A stretch of DNA of 46,534 nt from Patescibacteria group bacterium. GTDB lineage: Bacteria > Patescibacteriota > Doudnabacteria > UBA920. Made by a program: the position numbers and the translations under genes. The notes below the pieces were generated by a model. That model was not told the DNA's origin. It did not search any database and worked only from the letters and a program-made list of their open reading frames with translations. Below are positions 3,510 to 42,468 of this stretch, in pieces. The stretch lies in NCBI GenBank assembly GCA_038065175.1, contig JBBTRN010000018.1, forward strand, positions 1,445 through 47,978. The letters run 5' to 3'. Positions within the stretch are counted from its first letter, which is position 1, and every line of letters begins with the position of its first letter.

Positions 3510-3851
3510 TGTCCTCTAAAAAATGATTATTGAGGACAAAAAAATCGACCCCAATGGTTTTAGATCGATAAATTGAAAAAACTTTAGTTGCATTAATTCT
3601 TAAACGCGCCTGCTTACATAGGCTTATCTGGGATAAATGATTTATTATAAAGACGCGTAGCCAAATAAGCTTTAATATTATATAGGATTTTATTAAAATT
3701 GCAAGTCGCTGTTGGGGGGTTAAAACCCTTCCCTTTTCCTCTTAAAAAGGCTATAATAAAAATGTAAAGCGCAAAACGAAGAGCGAAAAACACGAAAAAT
3801 CTTTTAAATTTTAGACTGTTATTTTGCACTTTTCGCTTTACCTTTTAGACT

Positions 3852-4478
3852 ATGAATATCCAATACTTCGGCTTATCGAGCTTTAAAATTACCACAAAAG
3901 AAGCTGTAATTATAACTGACCCCTTCCACAAAGATTCCGGGCTCACACCCCCCCGGGGAGCCGCGGATATTTTAATTTTGGCCGACAAAACCAACAAAAA
4001 ATATTCAGCGGTTTCGGGCATTTCGGGCACGCCGTTTATGATGGATACCCCGGGGGAATACGACATGAAGGGCATAACTGTAAACGGCATACCCCTTAAC
4101 CAGGAAGAAAAATATGTAAGCGTATTTTTAATTGAAAGCGAAGACATCCGGCTGCTTAACCTTACTCACATAAAAGACTGGAGTATGAAAGAAGAGGAAA
4201 TAGAAAATTTGGGTGAAATAGATATTTTGATTCTGCCAGTGGGGGGGAATACAGTGCTGTCAGCCTCCCAGGCCAGCAAAGTGGTAAACGAAATCGAGCC
4301 GAAGATTGTTATCCCCTGCCATTATAAAATGGCGGGACTGATTTTTGATTTAGACAACGCGGAAAAATTTATAAAAGAAATGGGCGGAAAAAAAGAGGAA
4401 ATGGAAAAATTGACTCTAAAGAAAAAAGATTTGCAGGAAGAGGAGTCAAAAGTAGTGGTATTAGAGCCGCTAAGATAA
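3852..4478 (+). CDS. MBL-fold hydrolase-like protein (metal ligands degenerate)
   Basis: IQYFGLSSFKI, IITDPF, PGEYD, DILILPVGG and IVIPCHY typical of the family; HxHxDH absent. Confidence 0.8.
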   Translation: MNIQYFGLSSFKITTKEAVIITDPFHKDSGLTPPRGAADILILADKTNKKYSAVSGISGTPFMMDTPGEYDMKGITVNGIPLNQEEKYVSVFLIESEDIRLLNLTHIKDWSMKEEEIENLGEIDILILPVGGNTVLSASQASKVVNEIEPKIVIPCHYKMAGLIFDLDNAEKFIKEMGGKKEEMEKLTLKKKDLQEEESKVVVLEPLR

Positions 4479-4595
4479 TTGCGATACGGATATCCTGATC
4501 CATTCAGATGATACTGATAATACGGAACAAACATAGAAAATAGAATCAGTATTATCCGTATCATCGGTATTCAAATCCGTATATCAGTATCATAT
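4479..4595. repeat. empty inverted array of degenerate ATACGGAT/ATACTGAT units
   Basis: left arm gatacggatat...gatactgataatacgga; right arm atcagtattatccgtatc...atccgtatatcagtatc; fills the whole intergenic gap. Confidence 0.7.
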
Positions 4596-4784
4596 ATGTC
4601 CGTATTAGATAAAATCAGGAATAAACCCCACGCTGAAAAAGTGCGTTTAATCTGGATTATTTGCATAATTACCGGGGTTATACTGGTAGTGGTATGGATC
4701 TTTACCAGTAAAATTAATAAAAATATGCCGAAAGACACCAGATTGTTTCAATCAGCCAAAGAAAGTATAAAAAATTTAAAGTAA
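4596..4784 (+). CDS. small single-TM membrane protein
   Basis: 62 aa ORF with one hydrophobic helix; stop overlaps the gyrA start (TAATG). Confidence 0.7.
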
Positions 4785-7249
4785 TGCCTAAAGATTCATC
4801 AAAACCGATATCCGATAATATAGGGCTAATTAAACCCCGGGGGCTCCAAGCTGAAATGCAGGAGTCGTATTTAGATTACGCCATGAGCGTAATTGTGTCC
4901 CGCGCCTTGCCCGACGTCCGCGACGGCTTAAAACCCGTACACAGGCGAATTTTATACGTTATGCACGAGCTTGGCCTTAGGCACACTGTTAAATTCAGAA
5001 AATCCGCGGCTGTAGTCGGGGATGTCCTGGGCAAGTACCATCCCCACGGCGACCAGGCGGTTTACCAGTCCATGGTCCACATGACGCAGGATTTTTCCAT
5101 GCGCTATCCGCTAATAGACGGACAAGGAAACTTCGGCTCAATGGACGGGGACGGGGCAGCTGCCATGAGGTATACGGAAAGCAGGATGTCGGCACTGGCA
5201 GAAGAATTATTGACTGACTTGGACAAAGAAACAGTAAGCTGGCGCGACAACTACGATGCCACCAGAAAAGAACCGGCGGTTTTGCCGGGCAAACTGCCCA
5301 ATTTACTTCTAAACGGGTCGTTAGGCATTGCAGTGGGTATGGCTACGGATATCCCTCCCCATAACCTTGCTGAAATTGCCAACGCAATAATTAAACTTAT
5401 TGACGACCCGGAAAGTACCACGGAAGACTTGCTGGAATTCGTCAGCGGGCCGGATTTCCCAACCGGCGGAATTATTTACGACCTTGCGGCCATTAAGAAC
5501 GCCTACGCCACGGGCAAGGGCAGTATTGTTATGCGCGGTAAAACCGAAATTATTGAGACAAAAAGCGGTTCATACCAAATTATAATCAACGAAATCCCTT
5601 ACCGCGTTAACAAAGCCACGCTTTTAGAAAAAATGGCCGATTTGGTCAAGGACAAAAAAATTGAGGGAATAAAAGACATTAGGGACGAAAGCGACAAAGA
5701 CGGCGTGAGAGTGGTGATTGATTTAAAAAAAGAAGCTTTAGCCAACAAAATTTTAAATCAATTATTTTCCTACACCCAGCTGCAGGAAACCTTCCACATG
5801 AACATGCTGGCGCTGGTAGACGGCATTGAGCCCCATGTGCTTAACTTAAAAACTGTGTTAGAAAAATATTTGGAGCACAGGCAGTTAATTGTGAAAAAGC
5901 GGACTGAATTCGAGCTAAAAAAAGCCAAGGAGCGCGAACATATTTTAGAAGGCCTGAAAAAAGCCCTGGACCATATTGACCAAATTATCAGCGTAATAAA
6001 AAAGAGCCCGACTAAGGAAGAAGCGCAGTTAAATTTAATAAAAAAATTCAAATTTACGGAAATCCAGGCCCAAGCGATTTTAGAAATGCGGCTCCAAACT
6101 TTGGCGGGGCTCGAAAGGAAGAAAGTTGACGACGAATTAAAAGAAAAACGCGCGCTCATAGCGGAACTGGAGGATATTTTAAAATCCAGCAAGAAAATTT
6201 TAGGGATTATAAAAAGGGAAATTGTGGAATTAAAAGAAAAATTTGGCGACGAAAGAAGGACGCAGGTGGTAAAAAGCGCGGTCGGGACTTTTTCTGCTGA
6301 AGATTTAATCCCGGAAGAAAATGTAATTATTACGGTTACTAAATCGGGTTATGTAAAAAGGCTGGCGCCGGACACCTACCGCCAACAAGCGCGTGGCGGC
6401 AAGGGGGTTATTGGGCAAACCTTAAAAGAAGAGGATGTAGTGGAAAAACTGATTACTTCAAATACCCACGACGAAATTTTATTCTTTACCAACAAGGGCA
6501 GAGCTTTCCAGACCAAAGTTTATGAACTGCCCGAAGGTTCGCGCGTGTCGAAGGGCCAGGCCTTGGTCAACTTCCTGCAACTCCAGGCAGGTGAAACCGC
6601 GCAGGCAATATTGACCCTCACAAAAAAGGACCAGACCAAATTTTTAGTTATGGCGACTAAATAAGGCCTTATTAAAAAAGTTGCACGGGATGAATTTACT
6701 AAAGTAAGACGCAGCGGATTAATTGCCATCGGGCTAAAAGACAACGATGAGCTTAAATGGGTGGAAGGGACAAGCGGCGAAGACCAAATTATGCTATCTA
6801 CCCCGAACGGCCAGGCTATCCGCTTTAGTGAAAAAGACGTGCGTCCCATGGGCAGGAATGCTTCGGGCGTTGCCGGCATGCGCATAAAAAAAGACGATGA
6901 GCTTATCTCTATGGATATTATTAGAAAAGAGGCGGATATTAAAAACTTAGAAGTTTTGGTGGTTACAGAAAATGGCCTGGGCAAAAAGAGTAAAATCGCG
7001 GACTACAAAATCCAGAGGCGCGCGGGCAGTGGGGTTAAAACGCTTAAAGTTACGCCCAAGACCGGCAAAATAGTTGCAATGTATATTTTGGATCCAACCA
7101 TTGAACACGATTTGGTGGTAATTTCCAAAATGGGCCAAACCATAAGAACACCATTAAATTCCGTCTCCACTCTCGGCCGCGCCACACAAGGGGTAAGGGT
7201 TATGAGATTGGATGCGGGAGATAAAGTAGCAAGCGCGACGATAATTTAG
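4784..7249 (+). CDS. gyrA: DNA gyrase subunit A with one in-frame TAA at 6662-6664 (error or nonsense allele)
   Basis: [22 protein letters not shown] and GyrA-box QARGGKG; CTD pinwheel repeats continue in the same frame after MATK*GLIKK (822 codons in total). Confidence 0.92.
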
Positions 7250-7323
7250 CGAATAGCTGGTAGCAGGCAGTAAGTAGTACATAAAACTCCGGCAAATAGC
7301 GGAGGGCGGGGTTTAATTTTAGT

Positions 7324-7521
7324 TCAATTTAATCTTGTATATTTACCTTTCCTATAAATTAAGCTAAGGTGCCGGGTATCCTCAAATATCCATTTTTGTT
7401 CTTTTTTGGTCTTATATTCAGCAGCTTTAACATAACAGTGGCCGAGAATTTTCAAATTCTTCCCTGGCTCAAAATGCACTTCTGCTAAATGATTATTAAC
7501 CTTGGCAAAACACCAATGCAT
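7324..7521 (-). CDS. hypothetical protein
   Basis: 65 aa ORF immediately downstream of the tRNA on the same strand. Confidence 0.5.
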   Translation of the reverse strand: MHWCFAKVNNHLAEVHFEPGKNLKILGHCYVKAAEYKTKKEQKWIFEDTRHLSLIYRKGKYTRLN

Positions 7522-7536
7522 AAGCTATTTTTAATA

Positions 7537-7613
7537 TGGTGGGTGTACCTGGACTCGAACCAGGAACCGTTCGGATATAAGCCGAATGCTATAACCAATT
7601 GAGCTATACACCC
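7537..7613 (-). tRNA. tRNA-Ile (anticodon UAU)
   Basis: reverse complement GGGTGTA-TAGCTCAATTGGTTATAGCA-TTCGG-CTTATAT-CCGAA-CGGTT-CCTGGTTCGAGTCCAGG-TACACCC-ACCA; full cloverleaf with encoded CCA. Confidence 0.93.
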
Positions 7614-7716
7614 CTAAAACTTACAATATTATATTCTATCTTCATAGCAGTTTGCAATGGCAGAAATTAAACATGCTATAATGCTTATACTTTTAATCCT
7701 TAATCTATAATCTTAA

Positions 7717-8409: not shown

Positions 8410-8416
8410 AGAGATT

Positions 8417-8448
8417 CCGTTCTCCTATTCGCACGAATAGGAGAACGG
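8417..8448. repeat. perfect palindromic hairpin between two co-directional genes
   Basis: CCGTTCTCCTATTCG-ca-CGAATAGGAGAACGG; no U-tract; covers AGGAG upstream of the next ATG. Confidence 0.7.
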
Positions 8449-8456
8449 CCATACAG

Positions 8457-9809: not shown

Positions 9810-9819
9810 TCTCTTCCCC

Positions 9820-17062: not shown

Positions 17063-17081
17063 ACAAGAGTGATCAAGAATT

Positions 17082-17465
17082 ATGAATGACAAGAATAAAT
17101 ACAAAGACGGTAAAAATTTGCAAAAAAGGACTAAACAATTTGCTATTCGAATTATTAAACTTGCCCGATTTCTAGAAAAAGATCCTATCACACGGATGAT
17201 TGGCCGACAAATCTTTCGATCTGGAACATCCATTGCTGCAAACTACCGAGCTTCTTGCCGCTCCAGATCTGTTAAGGAATTTATTGCCAAATTGGGCATA
17301 GTAATTGAAGAAGCGGACGAAACTGAATTCTGGTTAGAATTACTGATTGAGTCCAGGTTGGTTGAACCAAATTTAATACAAGACCTTTTAAAAGAAGCTG
17401 ATGAAATAACAGCCATTATGGTAAGCTCAAAAAATTCAACAATAGCCAATCAGAAAAAAGAATAA
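17082..17465 (+). CDS. four-helix-bundle protein (23S rRNA IVS protein-like)
   Basis: QIFRSGTSIAANYRA...FIAKLGIVIEEADETEFWLELL. Confidence 0.9.
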   Translation: MNDKNKYKDGKNLQKRTKQFAIRIIKLARFLEKDPITRMIGRQIFRSGTSIAANYRASCRSRSVKEFIAKLGIVIEEADETEFWLELLIESRLVEPNLIQDLLKEADEITAIMVSSKNSTIANQKKE

Positions 17466-17507
17466 TTCTTATCATTCTTAATTATTCTCTAATTCTTATG
17501 TATTCCT

Positions 17508-18227: not shown

Positions 18228-18274
18228 TAAAAAACTGATAATTGATAATAAATAACTTATAACTAAAACAAACT

Positions 18275-18640
18275 ATGGCGTATAAGTTTAGAGACTGGCA
18301 AGTTTACAAAGACGCCAGAAAATTAAGACAAGAAATTAACCGACTTACTAAAACTTTTCCCAAAGATGAGCAATATATTCTTATTGACCAAATTAGAAGA
18401 GCCATTCTGTCGGTAATTTTACAAATTGCTGAAGGCTCTAACCGAAAAACTGAGAAAGACAAAAATCTCTTTATTAATCGGGCTTTGACATCTTTGGATG
18501 AGGTTATTGCTTGTTTTGATTGCGCTTTTGATGATAACTACATTTCTAAGGAAAAATTGGAAGAATTGGAGACTAAAATTGAAAATGTTTCTAGGCAGCT
18601 TAGAGGTTTTGCAAAGTATATTTCCAAAAGTTATAAGTAA
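18275..18640 (+). CDS. four-helix-bundle protein (23S rRNA IVS protein-like)
   Basis: FPKDEQYILIDQIRRAILSVILQIAEG...ALTSLDEV. Confidence 0.9.
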   Translation: MAYKFRDWQVYKDARKLRQEINRLTKTFPKDEQYILIDQIRRAILSVILQIAEGSNRKTEKDKNLFINRALTSLDEVIACFDCAFDDNYISKEKLEELETKIENVSRQLRGFAKYISKSYK

Positions 18641-18670
18641 TTAATTATAAATTATTAGTTAAAATTATTT

Positions 18671-22202: not shown

Positions 22203-25075
22203 AGATTTACAGCTATCGCATAAAAAAACGCTCTCACGGGTCAATTAAAACCTCGAAATTCAAATTCCCAAAATTACCCTTTCGGCTACCGTTTAAATTT
22301 AAGCGGCCGAAGAATGTTTGGACATTAATTTTTCGCGCGTTTGCCATGGGCATTTTATTTATTGCCCTGCTGTTTTTATATTATGCCAAAGACCTGCCGG
22401 ATCCCAACAAATTAATTGAAAGGGATGTGGCCGAAAACACCAAAATCTTTGACCGGGAAGGCAAATTGCTTTATGAAATACACGGCGAGGTAAAACGCAC
22501 ATTGATAGAACTTGACCAAATCCCTGAATACGCAAAACAAGCGTCAATTGCCATTGAAGATAAAGATTTTTACAACCACCATGGTTTGTATTTTAGGGGG
22601 ATTGCCCGTTCGCTCTTCCGCTATGTTATTAACCTTGGGCCCGAAGGGGGCGGAGGCAGTACTTTAACCCAACAATTTGTCAAAAACGCTATTTTAACCA
22701 ATAAAAAAACTTTTGGACGAAAAATTCCCGAGGCAATTTTAAGCTTAGAAATAGAAGCCAGGTTTTCCAAAGAAGAAATCCTAAAACTCTACTTAAACGA
22801 AATCCCCTACGGACGCAATGCCTACGGCATTGAAGCCGCGGCCTTTGGTTATTTTGGCAAATCTGCCAACGAGTTAAGTTTGGCCGAAAGCGCTTACCTG
22901 GCGGCATTACCCCAAGCGCCGACATTCTATAACCCCTTAGGCCCGAACCGAGCCGCTTTGGACGCAAGGAAAGACCGGGTCCTTGCGGCCATGCGAGAAC
23001 AGGGCTACATTAGTCCCGAACAGGAAAAAACCGCAACCGAAGAAAAAGTGGAATTTTTAAAAACCAAGACCGCCATTTCCGCGCCGCATTTTGTGTTGAT
23101 GGTGCAGGATTATTTAGCTAAAAAGTACGGAGAAAAAACCCTGGCTGAAGGCGGGCTTAGAGTTTATACTACCCTGGACTCCGGCCTGCAAAAAATTGCG
23201 GAAGAAGCGATTAAAGCCAGGGCAGAAACTAATTCCACGAAATACAATGCCCAAAACGCCAGCCTGGTTGCCGTTGACCCTAAAACCGGACAAATTTTAG
23301 CCCTGGTGGGAAGCAAAGATTACTTTGGGGAGAGTTTCCCTAAAGACTGCAGACCAGGAAAAACATGCCTGTTTGAGCCCAACGTGAACACCGCTCTTTC
23401 GCAGCTCCAACCCGGCTCAAGTTTTAAGCCTTATGTCTACGCAACGGCTTTCGGCAGGGATTATAAATTCGCCCCTGCCGCCATGCTTATTGATGTAGTT
23501 ACCAACTTCGGCACTTTTAACGGTAAAAACTATGCGCCTGAAAACTATAACAACAGAGAGCATGGCCCGGTTTCCATGCGTTCTGCATTGGCAGGCAGTT
23601 TGAACATCCCGGCGGTAAAAACCCTGGCCTTGGTTGGGGTGGACAAAGCAGTCCAGGTGGCGCGGGATTTAGGCATAACCAGCCCCATGGCTGACTGCGG
23701 CCTGTCTTTAGTTTTGGGAGGATGCGAAGTGAGATTAATAGACCACGTGGCCGCGTTTGGGGTTCTGGCCAACGGGGGCGTCAAAAACGAAAAAACCGCC
23801 ATATTAAAAGTCCTGGACAAGAACGGAAACACACTGGAAGAATTTGAGGAAAATCCAAAAGAAATTTTGGATCCCCAAGCCGTGTACCAACTTATAAGCA
23901 TAATGACGGACAACAACGCAAGAAGCTTTGTGTTTGGGGCCAACTCGCCTTTGACTTTGCCGGGCAGGGAAGTAGCGGCAAAAACCGGCACAACGCAAAA
24001 TTGGCACGACGGCTGGACTATGGGCTTTACGCCTTCTTTAGCCGCCGGAGTCTGGGCTGGGAATAACTGCGGGGGGGCGAACCCTAAATGCCTTATGAAA
24101 GAAGGGGCGGACGGCGTTTTTGTAGCAGCGCCTATCTGGAACCAATTCATGAAAGAAGCGCTAAAAGACAAACCTGCCGAAAGGTTCAAAGAACCCCCGG
24201 GGATTACGCGAATTATTGTTGACGCAACTTCCGGCAAACTCCCTACTGCCAACAGCCCCTCTACCAAAGAGGAGGTGTTTGCCGATTACAACCGGCCGCA
24301 AGATTATGACAATATTCACATTAGCTTGGCCTACGACTCTTTAACCAATCTACCCGCTGACCCTACAACCCCGCCTGAACGAATCACTTACAAAAACTTC
24401 ACGGTTTTCCAAAGCGAACAACCGCAAAACCCCGGCTGGGAAAATCCTGTAAGGGATTGGGCGATTAAGAACGGATACCTCTACCCTTCCAGGGTGCCTA
24501 CAAACCCAACCCAACCCGGATTTGGGGAAATTTCCGCCAGGATCACTAGCCCGTCAGACGGGCAACAAATTGAATCTTTGCCGTTTTTTGTGGGGGTTGA
24601 GGCTCAAGGCACGAACCCAATTGCCAGAGTGGATTTATTTATTGACGGGCTTTTTATTAAAAGTATGAATACCGCGCCCTACCGTTTTGAGGTCAATAAA
24701 ATCCTTTCCAATGGCCAGCATGTGGTGGCCGCAAAAGCATTGGACGCTGCCGGTAATATTGCGGATGCCAGTATAATAATTAGTTTCGGATCCCAGGGCG
24801 GTCTGGAATTAACCGACCCGGCGTATAACACATTAGCCCTATTCCCGATTACCCTGGCCGCGCAAAGCGCAAAAAAGTACGAATTAGTGAATTTTTATTA
24901 TTTGGAAGGTGAAATTGAAAAATTAATCGGGAAAGCGGAAAAGATAGAAAATGTGGGAGGGGGCTTCCGCTACAGCTTAGTTTGGGACAACGCGCCCGAT
25001 ATAAAAGAATTTTGGGTTTTTGCCAAAACTCCTGACGGGCAGGAGACAAAAAAAGTGAAGATAACAGTACCATAA
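22199..25075 (+). CDS. class A penicillin-binding protein (PBP1A family) with C-terminal Ig-like domain
   Basis: TM anchor, EDKDFYNH and GSTLTQQ transglycosylase motifs, GSSFK and KTGT transpeptidase motifs. Confidence 0.93.
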   Translation: MKIYSYRIKKRSHGSIKTSKFKFPKLPFRLPFKFKRPKNVWTLIFRAFAMGILFIALLFLYYAKDLPDPNKLIERDVAENTKIFDREGKLLYEIHGEVKRTLIELDQIPEYAKQASIAIEDKDFYNHHGLYFRGIARSLFRYVINLGPEGGGGSTLTQQFVKNAILTNKKTFGRKIPEAILSLEIEARFSKEEILKLYLNEIPYGRNAYGIEAAAFGYFGKSANELSLAESAYLAALPQAPTFYNPLGPNRAALDARKDRVLAAMREQGYISPEQEKTATEEKVEFLKTKTAISAPHFVLMVQDYLAKKYGEKTLAEGGLRVYTTLDSGLQKIAEEAIKARAETNSTKYNAQNASLVAVDPKTGQILALVGSKDYFGESFPKDCRPGKTCLFEPNVNTALSQLQPGSSFKPYVYATAFGRDYKFAPAAMLIDVVTNFGTFNGKNYAPENYNNREHGPVSMRSALAGSLNIPAVKTLALVGVDKAVQVARDLGITSPMADCGLSLVLGGCEVRLIDHVAAFGVLANGGVKNEKTAILKVLDKNGNTLEEFEENPKEILDPQAVYQLISIMTDNNARSFVFGANSPLTLPGREVAAKTGTTQNWHDGWTMGFTPSLAAGVWAGNNCGGANPKCLMKEGADGVFVAAPIWNQFMKEALKDKPAERFKEPPGITRIIVDATSGKLPTANSPSTKEEVFADYNRPQDYDNIHISLAYDSLTNLPADPTTPPERITYKNFTVFQSEQPQNPGWENPVRDWAIKNGYLYPSRVPTNPTQPGFGEISARITSPSDGQQIESLPFFVGVEAQGTNPIARVDLFIDGLFIKSMNTAPYRFEVNKILSNGQHVVAAKALDAAGNIADASIIISFGSQGGLELTDPAYNTLALFPITLAAQSAKKYELVNFYYLEGEIEKLIGKAEKIENVGGGFRYSLVWDNAPDIKEFWVFAKTPDGQETKKVKITVP

Positions 25076-25166
25076 AAATTACTAATGCCGAATTACTAAT
25101 GTCTAATCAATTTCTGTTGTTTAAATGCTTTAATTGGACATTTTGATATTAGTCATTGATTAGGAA
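25076..25166. repeat. empty inverted array of degenerate short repeats
   Basis: actaatg/tctaatc units on the left, cattttg/attagtc/gattagg units on the right; fills the intergenic gap. Confidence 0.55.
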
Positions 25167-25169
25167 TTG

Positions 25170-26402
25170 ATGAATTATTTAATCGTCCTCACAATCCTTC
25201 TCACTCCTGCCTACGCAATTAGGTTTAATATTTTTGGATTGTCCACAAATTTGCTAATGCTCTGGGTATTTTTTGTTTGGGTAATTTTTACATTTTACTT
25301 AACTGTCAACAATGAATGGGCCAAGTATATCGAGTTTAAATTATCACTGGATAAAAAAATTCTTGCCTTTATAAGCCTATTCTTTGCAGCCGCATTGATT
25401 AGCCTATTTTGGCAAGGCTTTAGCCAGGAAAAACTTGGGCAGTTTATTGTTCTGTTTATACAGCCAATTAGCTTGTTTATCATTGCGTCCTATACATGGT
25501 ATAAAAATCCTGATTCTAAACCCTTAATCCTTAATACTTGCTACTTGCTACTTGCGACCATGGGCCTCTTTGCCATCATCCAATACTTCACGCTTCTAGG
25601 CCTGCCGCCTGAATACTGGGGCAACAGCATGGAGCCGAAAAGGGTAATTGCGTTTTTTTCACATCCTAATTTTTATGCACTATTTATAGCTCCTTTATTG
25701 GCTTTTCTTATTCCTGACGCCTTTTCGGCAATTTCAAATTTCTCCGCCAAAGGCGGACAAATTTCAAAACTCTGGAAACCTATTTGCTGGACAATCGGGG
25801 CAATCGGGCTATTATTATCGCTATCTAGAGCGGGCTGGCTCGGGCTTGGGGTAGCTGGGCTAGTTTACTTATTTTTTGCTGCCGACAGAGCAATAAAAAA
25901 AATCGCCTCTGTTGTAGTAATTGTTATGGTTATTGTTATTGTTTCCGTCCCTAACCTCCGGTGGCGCTTTGTCCTACCCTTCTACGGCGAAAAGTCTGCT
26001 GTGTCTAGACTTAGCCTTTGGGAAACAGGGTGGAAAGGCGTAAAGGAGTCACCAATTTTGGGTCTGGGACTTACAGGCTTTTCAAATAATTGGAACAAAC
26101 TAAATACGGATCCAAATTTAGATACGCATAACTACCCGCATAATATATTTTTAAATTTATGGGTAGAAACGGGGATAATAGGACTTATGAGTCTTATAGG
26201 ACTAATAGGACCTTTAATTTATCGGGGACTTCGTTCTGTTTCCTCCTCCTTGAGGGGGGAGGGGCAGGGTGGGGGTGATGCGATAAAACTCGGCGTTGCG
26301 CTCTTCCTTATAGCTCTCCTGTCCCAAGGCCTCTTAGACAACCCTTACTTTAAAAACGATTTAGCTATGGTGTTTTGGATAGTGTTGTCTTTAGGGTTCT
26401 AA
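25170..26402 (+). CDS. O-antigen ligase (WaaL/Wzy_C) family membrane protein
   Basis: many TM helices, FSHPNFYA, LSLSRAGW and YPHNIFL. Confidence 0.88.
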   Translation: MNYLIVLTILLTPAYAIRFNIFGLSTNLLMLWVFFVWVIFTFYLTVNNEWAKYIEFKLSLDKKILAFISLFFAAALISLFWQGFSQEKLGQFIVLFIQPISLFIIASYTWYKNPDSKPLILNTCYLLLATMGLFAIIQYFTLLGLPPEYWGNSMEPKRVIAFFSHPNFYALFIAPLLAFLIPDAFSAISNFSAKGGQISKLWKPICWTIGAIGLLLSLSRAGWLGLGVAGLVYLFFAADRAIKKIASVVVIVMVIVIVSVPNLRWRFVLPFYGEKSAVSRLSLWETGWKGVKESPILGLGLTGFSNNWNKLNTDPNLDTHNYPHNIFLNLWVETGIIGLMSLIGLIGPLIYRGLRSVSSSLRGEGQGGGDAIKLGVALFLIALLSQGLLDNPYFKNDLAMVFWIVLSLGF

Positions 26403-29640: not shown

Positions 29641-30111
29641 TTATCTTTTTAGCCGTATAACCACTTTTCGGTAAGGCTCGCGGTCTATGCTCACGCTTTC
29701 GGCTTCTGGAAAATTTTCCTGGACATAAGCGTGTACGAGCCGGCGCTCAAAGTTAGGCATGGGTTCTAAAGCCACGGCTCGGCCGGTTTTTTTTATGTGC
29801 TCCACGGCAGCGCGCGCGGTTTCCTTTAAAAACCATTCGCGCTTCATTTTATAATCATCCACATCCAGGATAAACCAAAACGGCTCCTTTAAGGCATTTT
29901 GAGCTATCTGCCCTAATACAATCTGCAAGGCCTGTAAATGCGCCCCCTGCCGGCCAATTAATAAGTAGGAGTCGGCACCGGCAAAAATATTAAACACCAA
30001 GCCTTTGGTAATACTTTCCTCGTACGACACCTCCGCGTTTGAAAAACCCATTTTTACTAGGGTTTCTTTAACAAGGTTAAGAACAATTTCTATTTTGGAA
30101 TAATCGGTCAT
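29641..30111 (-). CDS. jag: Jag/EloR-type KH+R3H RNA-binding protein
   Basis: LLIGRQGAHLQALQ, LDVDDY and MPNFERRLVH; downstream of yidC. Confidence 0.88.
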   Translation of the reverse strand: MTDYSKIEIVLNLVKETLVKMGFSNAEVSYEESITKGLVFNIFAGADSYLLIGRQGAHLQALQIVLGQIAQNALKEPFWFILDVDDYKMKREWFLKETARAAVEHIKKTGRAVALEPMPNFERRLVHAYVQENFPEAESVSIDREPYRKVVIRLKR

Positions 30112-30175
30112 GTTCTAGTGATTAGTGCTAAGTGACTAGTGACTAGAAAAATCTAATCACTAAACACTAATCACT
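30112..30175. repeat. empty inverted array of TAGTGAY 7-mers
   Basis: tagtgattagtgctaagtgactagtgactag / ctaatcactaaacactaatcact between the yidC stop and jag start. Confidence 0.75.
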
Positions 30176-30881
30176 GACCACTTGCCTGCGCTCGCTGGCG
30201 GTTAATAATATACTGCTGGCCTATGCCAAAAAGGGTGGTTACCACCCAATAAAGAGGCAAGCCCGCGGGAAAATTCCAGGCGATTACCACGCTTACAACC
30301 GGCAGCATATACGTCATTTGCATAGACATAATTTTCTGCGTTGAGTCTGTCGGGCCGCTACCGCCTTTCGGCGCCATTAATTTAGACTGCCAAAACTGGG
30401 TTAAGCCTGCCAATACGGCCAGGACATGGCTGGGTTTGGACAAATCTAATAAACCCAGGAACATTGGACTTAAATGCTCCGGGCGCTTAATAAAACTATA
30501 AAGCCCGGTTAGTTCCCCGGTTAAAGCCTGGGTAAAAACAAAATACAAAGAAATTAAAATTGGCAGCTGGATGAGTAAAGGCAGGCAGGAAGAAAAAGGA
30601 TTTACTTTATGCTCTTTGTACAAGTCCATCATTGCTTTTGCCTGCGCCTGCTGGTCATTTTTATATTTCTCCCTAATCTCGTTCATCTTCGGCTGTATGG
30701 CCGTCATGGCCGCCTGGCTCTTGAGGGATTTGTGGAAAGAGGGGGCGAGGGCCAAGCGGATAAGCATGGTTAAAAGGATTATAACCACGCCAATATCCGG
30801 GATAATGTTATAGAACAAAATTAAAACATTCAACAACACCGGCACTAAAATAAAATTTTTGGAAAAAGGATTTAGGATCAT
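30171..30881 (-). CDS. yidC: membrane protein insertase
   Basis: IQPKMNEIREKY, SCLPLLIQLPI and PAGLPLYWVV. Confidence 0.93.
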   Translation of the reverse strand: MILNPFSKNFILVPVLLNVLILFYNIIPDIGVVIILLTMLIRLALAPSFHKSLKSQAAMTAIQPKMNEIREKYKNDQQAQAKAMMDLYKEHKVNPFSSCLPLLIQLPILISLYFVFTQALTGELTGLYSFIKRPEHLSPMFLGLLDLSKPSHVLAVLAGLTQFWQSKLMAPKGGSGPTDSTQKIMSMQMTYMLPVVSVVIAWNFPAGLPLYWVVTTLFGIGQQYIINRQRAQASGQ

Positions 30882-36822: not shown

Positions 36823-36845
36823 AATTTATTAAATTGGCAAATGGT

Positions 36846-38191: not shown

Positions 38192-38230
38192 AATTGATGA
38201 TTATTTATTAATAATTGATAACTGAAAATT

Positions 38231-38599
38231 CTAAGGTTTGTTGTGATTAGTGATATATTTATCCAGCCCACGAAGTTGTTTGCCGATGTTTTCGGTTTTT
38301 TCCATAAAATATATGTGCTGATCTTGGCTAATATAGCCATCGTCAAATGCAGAATCCAGACACGCAACAACTTCAAAAAGAGAAGTTAAGGAGCGGTTTA
38401 TAAAAACGCTTTTGTCTTTTTCTGTTTTTCTTTCAGACCCTTCGGCTATCTGCAGAAGTACAGAGAGCATAGCTCGCCTCGTTTGGTCGACTAACAGGTA
38501 TTTTTCTTCAACAGGGTAGGCTATTAGAATTTTGTTTACTTCCTTTTTCAGTGTACGTGCGTCTATATACACCTGCCAAGATTGAAACCTAAAAGCCAT
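38231..38599 (-). CDS. four-helix-bundle protein, close paralog of 18275-18640
   Basis: WQVY, YLLVDQTRRAMLSVLLQIAEGSERKTEKDK; flanked by a perfect 16-bp inverted repeat (38207-38222/38605-38620). Confidence 0.9.
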   Translation of the reverse strand: MAFRFQSWQVYIDARTLKKEVNKILIAYPVEEKYLLVDQTRRAMLSVLLQIAEGSERKTEKDKSVFINRSLTSLFEVVACLDSAFDDGYISQDQHIYFMEKTENIGKQLRGLDKYITNHNKP

Positions 38600-38639
38600 A
38601 GGCGGTTATCAATTATTAATTATCAATTATCAATCAGCT

Positions 38640-39185
38640 TTAATTGTGGTGGGCGTTCGTGCGCTGTTCGGGCGGGATTTTTTCGTAAAGGTCGAGGATT
38701 AGTTTGTTAATGGAACCAGGGTTTGGCACGTCTGAAAATTCAAAACGTTCTATGCTGGCCGCGGTTTGCACATACACATCGCCGTAGTTAAAGACAGTGC
38801 CTAAAACCCCGCTTACTTCGCTGGTTACATCTTCTATGTTTTCTATGTGGAGCTCGGAAACTTCGTGGTGGAAAAGCCCAACTTGGTCTATGTCTACAAT
38901 CCTGCGGTCAGTAATGATTTGCACGTTTAGGTAGTAAAACAGCCAAATTAAAAAAAGCGACAAGGTCAAGAATATGGTGTAAACCTGGAGAAATAGTTTG
39001 GTAACCGCGCCAATAGAGCCCTCAAACAGCCCGGGGAGCCAGACTCCCCCATAGCGCCTGAACAAGACTAGCGCCGCGGCAAACATAAACCAAATGAAAA
39101 GTTTTTTCAATAAAACCACCCAGTGCTGGCGCACCACAATATAAATTTTTTCGTCTTCCAGCTGGCTGGGGAAAAGTTTATGCAT
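38640..39185 (-). CDS. bacterial PH-domain membrane protein
   Basis: RQHW, two TMs, ITDRRIVDIDQVGLF and FNYGDVYVQTA. Confidence 0.8.
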   Translation of the reverse strand: MHKLFPSQLEDEKIYIVVRQHWVVLLKKLFIWFMFAAALVLFRRYGGVWLPGLFEGSIGAVTKLFLQVYTIFLTLSLFLIWLFYYLNVQIITDRRIVDIDQVGLFHHEVSELHIENIEDVTSEVSGVLGTVFNYGDVYVQTAASIERFEFSDVPNPGSINKLILDLYEKIPPEQRTNAHHN

Positions 39186-39277
39186 AGGCTAGTAATTGAT
39201 GATTGATAATTTATTATTGATAACTGCTTAGTTTGGTTTTAAGTAATCAATCATTAATCAACAATTATCAATTAATT
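39186..39277. repeat. empty inverted TGATAAT-type array homologous to the arms around 38231-38599
   Basis: TAATTGATGATT and ATTGATAACTG also occur at 38191 and 38214; right arm aatcaatcattaatcaacaattatcaatta. Confidence 0.75.
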
Positions 39278-39485
39278 AAACAATGTTTTGTAAAGTTGAA
39301 TGGGATTGGGCGAGGATTGTAAGAAAGAAAAAAGAAAACACCAAAGCTACCACAAGGCTAAGACCGCGTTTTTCTCCGTATTTAATAAGTACATAAATGC
39401 CAAAAGCAGCCAAAAAAACCATTACGGCGGCTAATACGTAGTAAATTCCGCCAATAACCATGTTGGCAAAAAGGGAAAAATTCAT
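39276..39485 (-). CDS. small two-TM membrane protein
   Basis: 69 aa with two hydrophobic helices, in operon. Confidence 0.7.
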   Translation of the reverse strand: MNFSLFANMVIGGIYYVLAAVMVFLAAFGIYVLIKYGEKRGLSLVVALVFSFFFLTILAQSHSTLQNIV

Positions 39486-39547
39486 AGTTTAATTAATTTC
39501 TAATGGATAATTGAATGCCCATAACCAAAAATTAGTTATCAGTTGTT

Positions 39548-40594
39548 TTAAAGAATGCTTTGTTGGCCGCTTGCGGAAACCGGGGGGATAATGTCCAGGT
39601 GCTTATAAGCGGCTTCCGTGGGCTGTCTGCCTTTAGGAGTCCTTAAGATCAGCCCCAGCCGCAGAAGGAAGGGTTCGTGGATGTCTGAAATGGTATCTTC
39701 TTCTTCGCCTGTGGCCGCGGCCAGGGTGTTAAGCCCCACAGGCCGGCCTTGGAATTTGTGGATTAAGGCTTCTAAAATTCTTCGGTCGTTTTTATCCAGA
39801 CCCAAATTGTCAACCTCCAACAGCTCCAAAGCTTCTTTGGCCGTGTCTAAAAGAATTGTATCATGGCCGTGGACCTGGGCAAAATCTCTCACGCGCCTTA
39901 AAAGCCGATTGGCAATCCGCGGGGTGAAGCGCGAACGGCGGGAGAGCTCCCCGGCCGCCGCTTTTTCCAAATCCGCGTTTAAAATTTTTCCGCTGCGTTC
40001 AATAATCCTTTCAATTTCTTCCGGTTCATAGTATTCCAGGCGGTAAGTCGCCCCAAAGCGGTCCCTTAAAGGCGCGGACAAAAGTCCGATCCGCGTGGTA
40101 GCGCCAATTAAAGTAAACTTAGGCAGTTCCATGCGGATGCTTCTTGCTCCCGGTCCTTTGCCCAGGACAATGTCCAAAAAGCCGTCCTCCATTGCCGGGT
40201 ACAAAATTTCCTCCACTGCTTTATTCAGCCTATGGATTTCGTCAACAAATAAAATGTCGCCCTCGGAGAGGTTGGTTAAGACAGAAGCCAAATCGCCGGC
40301 GCGCTCAATGGCCGGACCGGAAGTTATTTTAATGTTGCTGCCGATTTCCCGTGCGACAATATGCGCCAGCGTGGTTTTGCCCAGACCCGGGGGTCCATAA
40401 AATAAAATATGCTCCAAATGCTCCTTTCTCTGTTTTGCTGCCCCCAGGAGGATTTTGAGGTTCCGTTTTACCGACTCCTGGCCAATGTAGTCTTCAAAAT
40501 TGCCCGGCCGAAGGGTTTGTTCAATGACGATTTCGTCGTCATTAGCAGTGCTTGAGGCTAGGTCATCGGTTTTAGGTTTTTTTGATTCGATCAT
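39548..40594 (-). CDS. ruvB: Holliday junction branch migration helicase
   Basis: [30 protein letters not shown] and RTPKGR. Confidence 0.96.
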
Positions 40595-40599
40595 TTTTT

Positions 40600-40672
40600 A
40601 TTAGGTAGCTAGTAGGGGGTAGCTGGTAGCCAAATTGCCTGGCTAAATGCTACTCGCTACTTGCTAAATGCT
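40600..40672. repeat. empty inverted GGTAGCT/TGCTACT-type array
   Basis: ggtagctagtag...gtagctggtagc / gctaaatgctactcgctacttgctaaatgct between the vanW stop and ruvB start. Confidence 0.7.
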
Positions 40673-41969
40673 AGTTGGTTGGCATCTGCACGCCTGTTGA
40701 CGGTGCGGCGGTGGGGTAAGTTTCCTGTTTATGGAACAGAGCAGGCGACTGGTAAACTGACTTAAAAGTCGAAGTTGCGGTTTTGCCGCCGTTTTCCACT
40801 ATGCGGGTCCATTCCGCCTTCATACTGCCGTCAGTTTTTCTCTCATATGAAAAAGGTTTTTGCAAAGTTACCTTTCGTTCGTCGCGCGTGCCGTAAAATT
40901 CAAAAATTAAAGTATAGGAGTCTTTAATATAGGGCCAGACTAGAATGTGGCCGGGGGTGTCATTAATAAATTTTAAGTCAATGACTCCGGGGTAAATAGT
41001 GGCGTCCGTGCCTTGGGGCGAATAGTACTGCACGGCATAGGAGTGGTTTTTTCTTTGGGTAATGGGGATGCCCGCCTTCATGGCTGCCCTAAAGGTGGTG
41101 GAAGAGACTTGGCATAACCCGCCGCCAAATTCCGGTACTGTGCCGGTTTTTTTGATGACCAGCTCGGGCAAAAAGCCGTTTTCTGCCTCCACTGGTCCCA
41201 AAATTTTGTTAAAACTAAATTCTTCCCCGGGAGCAATAATTGCGCCCTTAAATTTGGTGAGGCCGACTTTAATATTATGGATGCGGTTTTTGGGACTGCC
41301 TTTGAAATTGGATTCACCGGTGGCTATTAATTCATTAATACCCATAGGGTTGGTTTCAGCCAAAGATTTTAACGGCTTGTCAATTTCAATCGCCAGTTCC
41401 GCCCGGGGTTCAGATCTCTCCAAGGCTCCCAGGATTATTAGGGTTGAAGAAAAAATATCCAGACTAAGCCCGTCTTTGGGAGGCGTAAAATTTACAGCCT
41501 GATTCACAGCCGTAGTATTTTTAAGCTCAAGGCTCGGTTCGGCTTTGGCAATATTAATCTTCCCGGATAAAGTTTTTAAGTAGTTGTAAATTTTTTCAGG
41601 ACGGTTTTTGTATATTACAATCCTTTCCTGGAATTTGTTAAAGTTAGCTGGCGCGCCGTTAATTCCATTTATTTCCATAATAGCAGTGTGGGTTGATTCG
41701 GAAGATGCAGAGAAAATTTGGGACCCGACGGTTTTTTCCGTCCCCAGACCCAAATATTTTTTTAACGCTGTTTGCGAACCATCCTGCTTTTCCAACAAAT
41801 TTTTTTTTGCAATGACCCCAATGCCTTTAAATGATTCAAGGGTATCTTCTCGGATCTCGGTTTCTTTCCCGGCATATAAAAGCTCAAAAGCCCGGACAGT
41901 TTTTAGCCGGTAGTTGAAAGCGCTTAAAATAACCAACACGAGAAAAAAAATTTTAATTCTGGCTTCCAT
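40671..41969 (-). CDS. VanW-family protein
   Basis: RIHNI, PGEEFSFN, GGGLCQVSST, RKNHS and DATIY; N-terminal TM. Confidence 0.88.
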   Translation of the reverse strand: MEARIKIFFLVLVILSAFNYRLKTVRAFELLYAGKETEIREDTLESFKGIGVIAKKNLLEKQDGSQTALKKYLGLGTEKTVGSQIFSASSESTHTAIMEINGINGAPANFNKFQERIVIYKNRPEKIYNYLKTLSGKINIAKAEPSLELKNTTAVNQAVNFTPPKDGLSLDIFSSTLIILGALERSEPRAELAIEIDKPLKSLAETNPMGINELIATGESNFKGSPKNRIHNIKVGLTKFKGAIIAPGEEFSFNKILGPVEAENGFLPELVIKKTGTVPEFGGGLCQVSSTTFRAAMKAGIPITQRKNHSYAVQYYSPQGTDATIYPGVIDLKFINDTPGHILVWPYIKDSYTLIFEFYGTRDERKVTLQKPFSYERKTDGSMKAEWTRIVENGGKTATSTFKSVYQSPALFHKQETYPTAAPSTGVQMPTN

Positions 41970-42366
41970 GGGTAAAATGAATCATTATGGCGTTAGGCGG
42001 CAAATATTTTTTTATTTTATCCGCCCATTCAATAAGCACAACCGCGTCTTTTTTCCCCCACAGATCGGTTATGCCCAAGGCCCTTACTTCACTAATGTTT
42101 TTAGTCCGGTATAAGTCTAAATGAAAAAGCATAATTTTCTTCTTATTCTTTGGCAAGAGACCCCTAAAGATGTTCATGAGCACAAAAGTCGGGCTGGTAA
42201 TCCTGTTCTTTACCTTTAAGCGTTTTGCCAGCGCTCGGGCGAAAGCTGTTTTTCCGCTTCCTAATTCGCCTATAAGAGCCAGAACTTCGCCGCCCCGGAG
42301 TTTATGGGCAATATTCTTAGCAGCATCGGGTATTTGTGAGAGGTTGAGGGTAGTGTGTTTTTGCAT
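41953..42366 (-). CDS. tsaE: tRNA t6A biosynthesis ATPase
   Basis: GELGSGKT, ITSPTF, HLDLYR and LIEWA. Confidence 0.93.
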   Translation of the reverse strand: MQKHTTLNLSQIPDAAKNIAHKLRGGEVLALIGELGSGKTAFARALAKRLKVKNRITSPTFVLMNIFRGLLPKNKKKIMLFHLDLYRTKNISEVRALGITDLWGKKDAVVLIEWADKIKKYLPPNAIMIHFTHGSQN

Positions 42367-42369
42367 TGT

Positions 42370-42468
42370 CTTTCAGATGTATCAGATTAATCGGATAAAT
42401 CAGAATAATTAGAAATCGTGGATATATGATCCGATTTATCTGATTTCTGATTATTCCGATATTCTGAC
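42370..42468. repeat. empty inverted ATCAGAT/ATCGGAT-type array
   Basis: tcagatgtatcagattaatcggataaatcaga / atccgatttatctgatttctgattattccgatattctga upstream of tsaE. Confidence 0.7.

Follow-up and report, generated by a model that had tools for sequence, protein, structure and literature searches.

Decades after they became known, heptamer repeats (STRR, GGGAATC, TAACTGA) and the intervening sequences of rRNA still have no agreed origin or function. The STRR of cyanobacteria are one example of bacterial heptamer tandem repeats. REPINs and MITEs are short, dispersed, gene-less intergenic hairpins whose ends recur on a less common form that bears a gene, and which occur as diverged copies within a genome; the REPIN/RAYT systems were reportedly set out by Bertels and Rainey in 2011. 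According to the available excerpts of two papers, GGGAATC arrays form 70-75 convergent pairs per Xanthomonas genome (PMC4692102) and TAACTGA repeats occur in Beggiatoaceae and cyanobacteria (PMC4679880). As excerpted, these repeats are intergenic tandem 7-nt units, lie mostly between aligned ORFs within 50 bp of a start or stop, often stand directly 5' of starts lacking a Shine-Dalgarno (SD) motif, can form stem-loops as convergent pairs and vary in position between related genomes; one unit per genome is described, G-quadruplexes or translational regulators are discussed, and the excerpts draw no link between the arrays and a bracketed gene. For the Coxiella burnetii intervening sequence (IVS) in 23S rRNA, the sections available of PMC4990558 describe an S23p ORF within a 28-bp stem-loop cut by RNase III and a variable copy number of GACAGAT heptamers before the ORF, and regard the IVS as a selfish element.

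We analysed a 46,534-nt stretch (the window) of a 1.03-Mb CPR/Patescibacteria genome, where the original prediction had placed inverted arrays of 7-9-mers in the gaps before start codons. This was borne out: all seven arrays fold as a single long imperfect hairpin each, with z-scores from -1.94 to -6.66 against 200 dinucleotide shuffles per array. The arrays, including one absent from the earlier list, and two solo half-arrays are as follows, with the shuffles that folded equally well in brackets after each z-score.

3759..3846, no strand: empty array hairpin in a divergent gap, ending 5 nt 5' of the Lactamase_B_3 ATG (3852; Pfam); 3755-3855 folds with z -1.94 (11/200), the weakest of the seven, the right arm having fewer units
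4478..4588, no strand: empty array hairpin of TACGGAT/TACTGAT-type units (the GxxExxY dialect, see below), occupying the gap between 3852-4478 and a 62-aa ORF at 4596; 4476-4600, z -3.56 (0/200)
7250..7280, no strand: solo half-array of TAGCTGG-type units, period 7, beginning directly 3' of the stop of the gyrA C-terminal ORF
7690..7716, no strand: solo half-array of period-7 TAATCNN units that runs up to the ATG at 7717
25076..25166, no strand: empty array hairpin of ACTAAT units between the PBP1 and Wzy-like genes, a member of a 17-copy dispersed family; 25073-25170, z -2.94 (2/200)
30117..30175, no strand: empty array hairpin of TAGTGAn heptamers from yidC to jag/khpB, with the yidC stop codon within the first unit and the far end 5 nt 5' of the jag/khpB ATG; 30108-30176, minus strand, z -6.66 (0/200)
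39193..39274, no strand: empty array hairpin of the TTGATAA unit family, shared with the filled cassette 38192..38639 about 550 nt away; 39183-39280, minus strand, z -3.29 (2/200)
40606..40666, no strand: empty array hairpin of GTAGCnn heptamers from a vanW-like gene to ruvB; 40592-40675, minus strand, z -3.99 (0/200)
42373..42467, no strand: empty array hairpin of TCAGAT/TCGGAT units, period about 9, in a divergent gap, 6 nt from the tsaE start; 42364-42470, z -3.70 (0/200)
45455..45541, no strand: further array hairpin of TACGGAT units, 26 bp, z -3.5, with the left arm of the GxxExxY cassette 45520..45965 coming immediately after it

Independently, TRF placed period-7 repeats at 30115-30146, 30153-30175, 39193-39223, 39246-39272 and 40604-40630, and period-9 repeats at 4545-4593 and 42373-42404. 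The five arrays predicted from 4479, 25076, 30112, 39186 and 40600 do occupy the gap between co-directional ORFs, and those predicted from 3760 and 42370 lie in divergent gaps. The two half-arrays are real period-7 runs that show no complementarity to each other. Contigs from other runs span the arrays at 39186, 40600 and 42370 with zero differences, so the arrays are not an assembly artefact.

The same kind of arms also brackets genes. The window holds four such filled cassettes, three around a four-helix-bundle (4HB) gene and one around a GxxExxY nuclease gene of the PD-(D/E)XK type.

17063..17507, plus strand: filled 4HB cassette, gene 17082-17465 (TIGR02436, 3.6e-24), left arm AAGAAT-type, right arm of ATTCTTA units
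18228..18670, plus strand: filled 4HB cassette, gene 18275-18640 (TIGR02436, 5.7e-27), left arm of TTGATAA/AACTTAT units, plus a right arm
38192..38639, minus strand: filled 4HB cassette, gene 38231-38599, TTGATAA/TTATCAA arms
45520..45965, plus strand: filled GxxExxY cassette, nuclease gene 45542-45919 (TIGR04256, 1.7e-33), GGTAAT/TACAGAT-type arms

All three 4HB genes match PF05635/TIGR02436, the protein family of the S23p IVS, and gene 18275-18640 also matches PDB 2gsc (Xanthomonas XCC0516; 2.2e-9). As in the IVS, the ORF of these cassettes sits in the loop of a stem formed by terminal inverted repeats; tandem heptamers of varying copy number stand immediately 5' of it, as GACAGAT does in Coxiella, and the IVS stem of about 20-30 bp has its counterpart in the 26-bp median stem of the array hairpins (65 co-directional shells, as we call the gene-less arrays). 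Unlike the IVS, all copies studied here lie between protein-coding genes rather than in a 23S rRNA helix, the arms are entire unit arrays, and most copies are gene-less: an S23p-family ORF occupies the loop of the three window cassettes but not of the seven empty arrays or of GxxExxY cassettes. A second cargo, the GxxExxY nuclease, has the same layout here, and RNase III cleavage, demonstrated for the IVS, can only be supposed for these arrays.

Across the genome, both-sided arms were found at 9 of 10 loci of PF05635 (4HB, '23S-rRNA intervening-sequence protein') and at 8 of 11 loci of PF13366 (GxxExxY PD-(D/E)XK), where two further loci have one-sided arms and one has none. The flanks of a cassette fold together. 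In relatives, where 27 + 25 loci were inspected by eye, most carry inverted unit arrays on both flanks, which upholds the proposed link to cargo genes: the same arms bracket 4HB (PF05635) and GxxExxY (PF13366) genes here and elsewhere. The cargo gene is co-oriented with the upstream gene in 18/18 scorable cases (chance about 0.01, given 78% co-directional neighbour pairs). In the GxxExxY copies, the putative nuclease residues E30, D69, E79 and K81, all retained in gene 45542-45919, are invariant in 32/32, which suggests a nuclease under selection. Both cargo families are large families of 'hypothetical proteins', and PF13366 is entered as 'Unknown' in PMC3424549.

Inverted unit arrays occupy 109/624 intergenic gaps of the genome, compared with 10/624 shuffled gaps and 9/624 coding windows, and are found in divergent (12/64) and convergent (7/84) gaps as well. 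Period 7 accounts for 55 of 78 scored arms and period 6 for none. Although each array has its own unit within the window, as originally stated, this does not extend to the genome, where the arrays form dispersed families of 17, 8, 8, 4 and 3 members that can be aligned over their full length including the loop (67-89% identity) and vary by entire units at the outer ends. No full-length partner exists within the genome for the largest shell family (CAAAT units), and no two shells are more than 88.6% identical, which gives no hint of a recent burst. Arrays and cassettes share arm types: the unit families TAGTGA, GTAGC, TTGATAA, TTGACAAAAT, CGAAT, CAGAT and CTAAAT are common to shells and cassette arms. 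The shells thus have inverted ends shared with a longer gene-bearing element, as MITEs do, and resemble REPINs and MITEs in being short, dispersed, gene-less and divided into diverged families. They differ in their linked genes, which encode a four-helix bundle and a protein of PD-(D/E)XK fold instead of a Y1 or DDE transposase, in their ends, where arrays of 7-10-nt units take the place of a single palindrome and no target-site duplication was seen, and in that the Y1 gene of this genome (C30) has its own, different palindrome. Compared with heptamer repeats, the arrays likewise consist of head-to-tail intergenic units of 5-11 nt (mostly 7) and form close convergent pairs near starts and stops between aligned ORFs, but a single genome here has many unit families, nearly always in inverted pairs, and two cargo-specific dialects.

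The arm dialect tracks the cargo type. Arm 4-mers called the cargo correctly in 56/60 de-duplicated cassettes, whereas 0/1000 label permutations did as well (maximum 0.70). 4HB arms have period 7 in 28/40 strong arms; GxxExxY arms have periods of 7-10 and a core [TC]AC-N-R-A-W. Nearest-centroid assignment divided 74 clean shells 37/37 between the dialects, with small margins. The arrays also co-occur with the cargo genes across genomes: six gene-rich relatives had 28 array loci in 400 kb (7.0 per 100 kb) and seven relatives without either gene had 4 in 373 kb (1.1 per 100 kb; GC is similar in these), in a small sample of conveniently picked regions from non-independent kin, as against 7.7 per 100 kb in the genome itself and 0.5 in shuffled sequence. 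Within GxxExxY cassettes, the unit subtype did not track the protein tree (13 changes, shuffled mean 14.6, 59/500 shuffles as low), and a recognition code of one protein for one unit is therefore unsupported; shared ancestry of arms and cargo, instead of binding, could account for the dialects.

Comparison of orthologous junctions shows the arrays to be insertions and not structures conserved by the host. In 37.7-43.8 kb, neither the cassette nor any of the three arrays is present in the same-genus relative G001: cassette 38192..38639 is missing, arms and gene, in favour of an 18-nt g37727/bPH junction, and the junctions equivalent to arrays 39193..39274 and 40606..40666 measure 31 and 23 nt. 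Array 25076..25166 is likewise missing from the orthologous junction of G001. The ruvB operon was compared in 11 relatives: its junctions there are ancestrally tight, at 3-40 nt in most cases, with sporadic arrays at other junctions and of other units. At the yidC>jag junction this genome has TAGTGA units, whereas G001 and G004 have units of GAATTA type and G002 and G003 have nothing; unit arrays occur there in 9 of 26 more distant relatives and other hairpins in 3, with 14 having neither. No target-site duplication was recognisable at the junctions compared, where relatives are only about 70-77% identical in DNA and too diverged, and no transposition event or excision polymorphism was seen, the contigs of other runs being identical.

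These results are probably best explained if the empty arrays are gene-less shells, MITE-like non-autonomous or decayed, of two related kinds of small cassette. One kind would consist of inverted short-unit arrays around a four-helix-bundle gene (PF05635/TIGR02436) and the other of such arrays around a GxxExxY PD-(D/E)XK nuclease gene (PF13366/TIGR04256), and cassettes and shells alike would have been inserted at very short stop-to-start junctions of housekeeping operons, which would be why the arrays seem to occupy the gap and abut both codons. We infer that the arms are the DNA-level substrate of machinery belonging to the element, perhaps the conserved nuclease, and that slippage alters the number of units. 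Once the operon is transcribed, pairing of the arms would give a stem of about 26 bp that tucks the insert away, such that stop and start remain adjacent, and by analogy with rRNA intervening sequences RNase III could cut this stem and make the insertion tolerable. Our literature search found no paper connecting these arrays with 4HB and GxxExxY genes.

The opposite order of events, in which arrays arise first, by slippage and template switching or as mobile hairpins, and small genes later home into their loops, is unlikely. One architecture is indeed used by two unrelated cargo families, the GxxExxY nuclease with its intact catalytic residues could be a homing endonuclease, and shell loops look like what joining the inner ends of cassette arms would give (TAGTGA shells and C6:5026), a likeness that fits either direction. 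G001 also has empty arrays at two junctions that hold 4HB cassettes here; these, however, consist of units different from the cassette arms, one of the other dialect, and are not one pad in an empty and an occupied state. At the g37727/bPH junction an entire cassette is present here against a plain 18 nt in G001, and loss appears to be under way, with no gain seen: broken or truncated cargo genes lie between arms on three contigs (C11, C30, C49), and G002 has a 4HB N-terminal remnant at a junction that holds an intact cassette in this genome. The evidence points to whole cassettes, arms with gene, having probably been gained at tight junctions, with decayed intermediates, rather than to the originally suggested landing pads for cargo genes.

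We consider it improbable that the hairpins are a host-selected RNA device, kept, as the original prediction suggested, for stop-start coupling or for programmed mRNA processing in SD-poor operons. In the 65 co-directional cases the median distance is 4 nt from the stop codon to the beginning of the array stem and 9 nt from the end of the stem to the start codon, compared with 12.5 and 13.5 nt for 80 other strong hairpins; the stem is long enough for RNase III, whose gene is present in the genome; and 926/1121 genes lack any SD-like motif, because of which coupling may matter in this genome. The stem ends are therefore as close to stop and start as had been anticipated, but this is also what insertion into a short junction would produce, and the length left unpaired (median 13 nt) shows no difference from that of ordinary short junctions (median 9.5 nt; p = 0.40). 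Likewise, the starts behind arrays do lack SD motifs, which is not peculiar to them, given the genome-wide count. Sense and antisense strands are equal across 90 co-directional arrays (286 vs 285 G-U pairs; energy p = 0.53), although a sense bias does appear in non-array hairpins (p = 0.004). Arrays sit in gaps that are not co-directional too, are missing or replaced at orthologous junctions within the genus, where sister operons have plain tight junctions, and in the largest family show almost no covariation (1 compensatory cell in 11 pairs). That the hairpins evolved for translational coupling is not supported by these observations; the hairpin possibly keeps stop and start adjacent incidentally, making insertion tolerable, and processing by RNase III at array stems is plausible.

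Origin as an immobile, gene-independent by-product of slippage of the STRR/LSSR type, with inverted pairs made by template switching, is very improbable. The dominance of period 7 matches the general heptamer-repeat excess, attributed to polymerase slippage (Mrazek 2007, as cited in the excerpts of PMC4679880), and shells do vary by entire units; yet dispersed family members have loops and non-repeated cores in common, the arms are closely tied to two specific gene families, and arrays are rare in the sampled stretches of relatives without those genes despite similar GC. The chance that the arrays are REP/REPINs mobilised by a RAYT-type Y1 transposase, or intrinsic terminators, is minimal: the hairpin shape and intergenic placement are similar and the genome has two Y1_Tnp matches, but the better one (C30) has on either side a perfect, GC-richer palindrome of another kind in place of unit arrays, the weaker (C4) has no evident palindrome or array alongside, and in place of a GC-rich stem with a U tract, the arrays have a median stem GC of 27% and TTTT after just 6 of the 47 with a tail of at least 6 nt, with none of the terminator-like sites in 37.7-43.8 kb coinciding with an array.

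Beyond the cassette reading of this genome, we tentatively suggest, as a broader and rather speculative view, that rRNA intervening sequences, unexplained heptamer repeats and many REP-like hairpins belong to one undescribed class of mobile cassette. Inverted short-unit arrays would be its working ends, and the GxxExxY nuclease or the pentameric four-helix-bundle protein would be the element's own factor, each with its own dialect. The targets would be transcribed junctions, either operon stop/start sites or rRNA helices, where the arms would fold in RNA and RNase III would remove the insert, sparing the host gene products; this would amount to intron-like harmlessness without splicing. One compact genome displays shells, two cassette kinds, cargo-specific dialects, and gain and loss at operon junctions together, and with all these pieces side by side a vague repeat class becomes a testable mobile-element hypothesis with named proteins and DNA and RNA sites.

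On the cassette reading, about one gap in six in such genomes would be recent selfish DNA, which bears on the annotation of starts, promoters and small RNAs in CPR, and array hairpins are readily misread as regulatory structures. In the window, array 42373..42467 sits just 5' of a consensus-like promoter at 42485-42513 (TTGACC-17-TATAAT, 11/12); this array abuts only the tsaE start at 42366, and the supposed TTG start alongside, at 42485, is more probably that promoter's -35 box.

All seven inverted arrays named in the original prediction (starting near 3760, 4479, 25076, 30112, 39186, 40600 and 42370) are present in the sequence. Each folds as a single long, imperfect hairpin; against 200 dinucleotide shuffles the z score is weakest for 3755-3855, at -1.94, and reaches -6.66 for 30108-30176. 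Tandem Repeats Finder independently returned arm periods of 7 or 9. Five of the seven fill gaps between co-directional ORFs, as had been claimed, and the remaining two occupy divergent gaps; the genes beside them are ordinary housekeeping genes (yidC, jag, ruvB, vanW-like, tsaE, gyrA, PBP1 and Wzy-like). The host genome, 1.03 Mb in 60 contigs at 97.9% completeness, has as its closest named relatives CPR/Patescibacteria MAGs labelled Daviesbacteria, Doudnabacteria and similar, and the window DNA is also present in groundwater-metagenome runs. Because contigs from other runs match three of the window arrays letter for letter, the arrays are not assembly artefacts; in the parts covered, these contigs showed no variants, no array indels and no joints at arrays. 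Two short exact contigs from the single RNA-library run fall within ruvB and the DHH gene, and reveal neither array transcription nor RNA ends. The sole match in an Rfam search of the window was a tRNA.

We then treated the whole genome with gene calls from a simple codon-score ORF picker (1137 genes), which is crude enough that two of the seven window arrays are missing from the genome-wide tables; gene starts were compared with homologues for the ruvB operon only. Folding of 624 gaps of 30-300 nt gave a median z of -2.3, with z < -3 in 248. A strict word test demanded two or more copies of a 5-mer, spaced 5-14 nt apart, on the left side of a gap and the same for its reverse complement on the right; it detected inverted arrays in 109 of the 624 gaps, compared with 10/624 shuffled gaps and 9/624 coding windows. 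Co-directional gaps account for 90 of the 109 (out of 476 such gaps), divergent gaps for 12 (out of 64) and convergent gaps for 7 (out of 84). Of the 78 arms scored, 55 had period 7; periods 8-10 came next in frequency, and none had period 6. The claim that each array has its own unit does not extend to the genome: all-vs-all comparison of 82 arrays revealed five dispersed families of 17, 8, 8, 4 and 3 members, alignable over at least 60% of their length, loop included, at 67-89% identity, and the window array at 25076 belongs to the 17-copy family. Family members differ by whole units at their outer ends.

Similar arrays bracket genes. The genome contains 10 loci with PF05635 matches (11 matches in total), three of which lie in the window, and at 9 of the 10 loci inverted unit arrays stand on both sides of the gene, wedged between the neighbour genes. 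These proteins match TIGR02436 (four helix bundle protein, hereafter 4HB), and one matches the solved Xanthomonas protein XCC0516 (2gsc). A second cargo family, PF13366/TIGR04256 (GxxExxY, with a PD-(D/E)XK fold), surfaced from a blind screen for genes with mutually inverted arrays on two flanks, a noisy procedure that flagged 51 of 1137 genes when a control with random pairing still gave 29 of 1096. Its 12 matches fall at 11 loci, including one in the window (45542-45919); arms occur on both sides at 8 loci and on one side at 2, and the remaining locus, where the gene forms part of a longer fused ORF, lacks them. The nuclease signature (E30, D69 and E79-x-K81) is invariant in all 32 intact copies, and broken or truncated cargo genes still lie within arms on contigs C11, C30 and C49. 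In all 18 scorable cases the cargo gene has the orientation of the upstream gene, an outcome expected about 1 time in 100 by chance, since 78% of adjacent gene pairs are co-directional. Across up to 40 relatives, most of the 27 and 25 loci examined have the same bracketed layout, as judged by eye. Our literature search (which covered papers without their supplements) found none that connects unit arrays with 4HB or GxxExxY genes lying between them. Work by Elhai in 2008, reportedly on small dispersed repeats within heptamer arrays of Nostoc, may bear on the array question.

Our comparison shows that the empty arrays (shells) and the cassettes belong to one repeat system: empty arrays and cassette arms are built from the same unit families, and the two forms can be near neighbours, as in the window.
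39193-39274: TTGATAA shell, about 550 nt from the cassette at 38192-38639
38192-38639: TTGATAA cassette

Comparison with relatives demonstrates gain and loss of shells and cassettes at operon junctions. The gene order g37727-bPH-tm69-ruvB-vanW-tsaE is conserved in 11 relatives, with junctions mostly of 3-40 nt, and in the congeneric genome G001 the four junctions of this operon compare with ours as follows.

Junctions of the ruvB operon
Junction 1: 18 nt in G001; 448-nt cassette in our genome
Junction 2: 31 nt in G001; 90-nt array in our genome
Junction 3: 5 nt in G001; 62-nt gap without an array in our genome
Junction 4: 23 nt in G001; 76-nt array in our genome

Other relatives have arrays of other units at different junctions of this operon. 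The yidC>jag junction is similarly variable.

The yidC>jag junction
Our genome: TAGTGA heptamers
G001 and G004: GAATTA-type units
G002 and G003: nothing

Of 26 further relatives, 9 have unit arrays at this junction, two of which are half-arrays; 3 have hairpins of another kind and 14 have neither. The PBP1>Wzy junction is tight in G001. The arrays are insertions, not conserved host structures. Target-site duplications were not recognisable at the compared junctions, where the relatives are too diverged. At the counterpart of the junction occupied in our genome by the intact 4HB cassette 18228-18670, two congeneric relatives, G003 (L236:1063-1428) and G002 (L243:1972-2337), carry an orphan 121-aa ORF without a Pfam family. 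In G002 this unrelated ORF comes after a seven-codon 4HB start and a stop. An 82-aa orphan ORF lies at another junction. Operon junctions are hot spots for varied small inserts.

Relatives carry 0-14 4HB and 0-7 GxxExxY genes. We ran the array test, adapted to 6-mers, on stretches from relatives at both extremes of cargo count. In this small sample of conveniently chosen stretches, from kin that are not independent, arrays were rare in the relatives for which neither cargo gene had been found.

Array loci and cargo genes
7 genomes with neither gene: 4 array loci (3 in the 34%-GC genome) in 373 kb, 1.1 per 100 kb
6 gene-rich genomes: 28 array loci in 400 kb, 7.0 per 100 kb
Our genome: 50 array loci in 651 kb, 7.7 per 100 kb
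Shuffled DNA of our genome: 1 array locus in 200 kb, 0.5 per 100 kb

The arms also form two dialects, each linked to a cargo type. Arm 4-mer composition alone predicted the cargo in 56 of 60 cassettes (leave-one-out nearest centroid; 60 retained from 70 after dropping near-duplicate arms), and none of 1000 label permutations exceeded 0.70. Arms of 4HB cassettes are enriched in AGTA, AAGT, TAAG, GTAG and TAGC and mostly have period 7 (28 of 40 strong arms), and GxxExxY arms are enriched in CGAA, TACG, ACGA, TACA, CAGA and CGGA, with periods 7-10 and a core that we read as [TC]AC-N-R-A-W; the two dialects with their different periods therefore account for the 7-9-mers originally described. Co-evolution of protein and unit within the GxxExxY family was unsupported: for 27 of the 32 proteins we counted 13 changes, where shuffles averaged 14.6 and 59 of 500 were as low. 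Set aside were four proteins that lacked a clear unit class, and L144, which nearly duplicates L143. Because the variable core letters do not track the protein tree, the dialect is ambiguous in meaning, and may reflect recognition of the constant part of the core or mere shared descent of arms and gene.

The original prediction had proposed that the hairpins may bring stop and start codons together and so preserve translational coupling. Stem ends are indeed close to both codons, as that idea requires, at a median of 4 nt past the stop and 9 nt ahead of the start in 65 clean co-directional shells, but a hairpin dropped into a native short junction must touch both, and the unpaired remainder of the shells (median 13 nt) is not different from that of ordinary short junctions (median 9.5 nt; p = 0.40). 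Starts behind arrays do lack Shine-Dalgarno (SD) motifs, as claimed, but this is not special to array genes: an SD-like word at -18 to -4 is absent in 926 of 1121 genes, with only a weak positional peak, and a strong GGAG/GAGG-type word occurs in 84 of the 1121; a search for the conserved 16S 3'-end motif found none in this genome. Sense-strand folding bias is absent in the 90 co-directional arrays (p = 0.53; 286 G-U pairs sense, 285 antisense), but such a bias does exist in hairpins below z = -3 that are not arrays (p = 0.004). An analysis of covariation among 12 hand-picked CAAAT-unit hairpins, which overlap the 17-member family, was uninformative, the consensus fold having only 11 pairs with 1 compensatory cell. 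The missing strand bias, the junction turnover and the native junction geometry together argue against coupling as an evolved device, leaving it only in a weaker, passive form.

The arrays between 37.7 and 43.8 kb contain no promoters of note. A near-consensus sigma-70-type promoter (TTGACC, 17 nt, TATAAT) lies at 42485-42513, and the TTG previously taken as a start beside array 42370 is probably its -35 box; since the promoter overlaps this TTG of the ORF list, the true start of the DHH-family gene is probably further downstream. Arm polarity relative to transcription ("left arm always CAAAT") says nothing about orientation, because an inverted repeat is identical on both strands. Arms capped with three-frame stops for incoming ribosomes were rejected, stops per 100 nt being 7.7 inward, 7.9 outward and 7.4 shuffled; in the same order, 47, 39 and 25 of the 148 arms had a stop in every frame. 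A terminator role is disfavoured by TTTT after only 6 of 47 stems and a median stem GC of 27%.

Related arrangements have been described elsewhere. The account of the Coxiella 23S intervening sequence in the relevant part of PMC4990558 is of a selfish 428-nt element whose inverted ends pair as a 28-bp stem that RNase III cleaves, with an S23p ORF in the loop behind two to three GACAGAT heptamers, variable in number among strains. The portion of PMC4692102 on Xanthomonas GGGAATC heptamer arrays gives 70-75 convergent pairs, preferentially between aligned ORFs and <50 bp from starts or stops, and that of PMC4679880 on Beggiatoaceae and cyanobacteria places TAACTGA repeats just 5' of SD-less starts. 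For PF13366, the relevant entry in PMC3424549 gives the function as "Unknown".

We infer that shells are non-autonomous or decayed cassette copies, the step in which we have most confidence. Unit number would drift via slippage. With less confidence, the arms may act at the DNA level as sites for the element's own protein, the nuclease being the obvious candidate; a retro-mobility route is unlikely, as reverse TRANSCRIPTASE (PF00078) has no match in the 97.9%-complete genome. Most tentatively, the arms may pair in the operon transcript, leaving the insert as a side branch with stop and start still adjacent, and the stem would be a likely substrate for RNase III, whose gene is present in this genome. 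Such a side branch would account for the tolerance of these insertions precisely at junctions and, elsewhere, in rRNA helices.

The Y1 transposase on contig C30 is an unlikely array mobiliser, since its own palindrome differs from the unit arrays. This Y1_Tnp (IS200/RAYT-like) gene, C30:4117-4758, has a perfect palindrome on both sides, about 20 bp per arm and of GAGATGGTCATCTTCTCGG type, with copies at C30:4057-4116, downstream of the gene and also at C30:1293-1389; gene and palindrome make up a REP/RAYT-like system distinct from the unit arrays. Palindromes of similar appearance occur at C9:46476-46704 and C22:37286-37375. The genome also holds longer MITE-like elements of at least two families, about 170-260 nt long, with termini TAGACCTGTTG... 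and CAGGACTTACG...
C3:4986-5258: MITE-like element, within the loop of a GTTGTGG/CCACAAC unit array
C54:11087-11269: MITE-like element
C54:13018-13228: MITE-like element
C44:27629-27927: MITE-like element
C59:7385-7651: MITE-like element
C22:42844-43053: MITE-like element

Within the window, a perfect, GC-richer 14-bp hairpin without tandem units (8410-8456, CCGTTCTCCTATTCG..., z -7.0) makes up a whole co-directional gap. The gyrA gene (4784-7249) contains a single in-frame TAA at 6662-6664, beyond which the frame continues to 7249 as normal GyrA C-terminal repeats; alignment with G001 across this stretch shows unchanged length. Possible explanations of the TAA are an assembly error, a nonsense mutation and read-through. 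Finally, a tRNA-Ile with anticodon TAT (UAU), uncommon in bacteria, lies at 7537-7613 on the minus strand between two unrelated solo half-arrays, beside an orphan 65-aa ORF (7324-7521).
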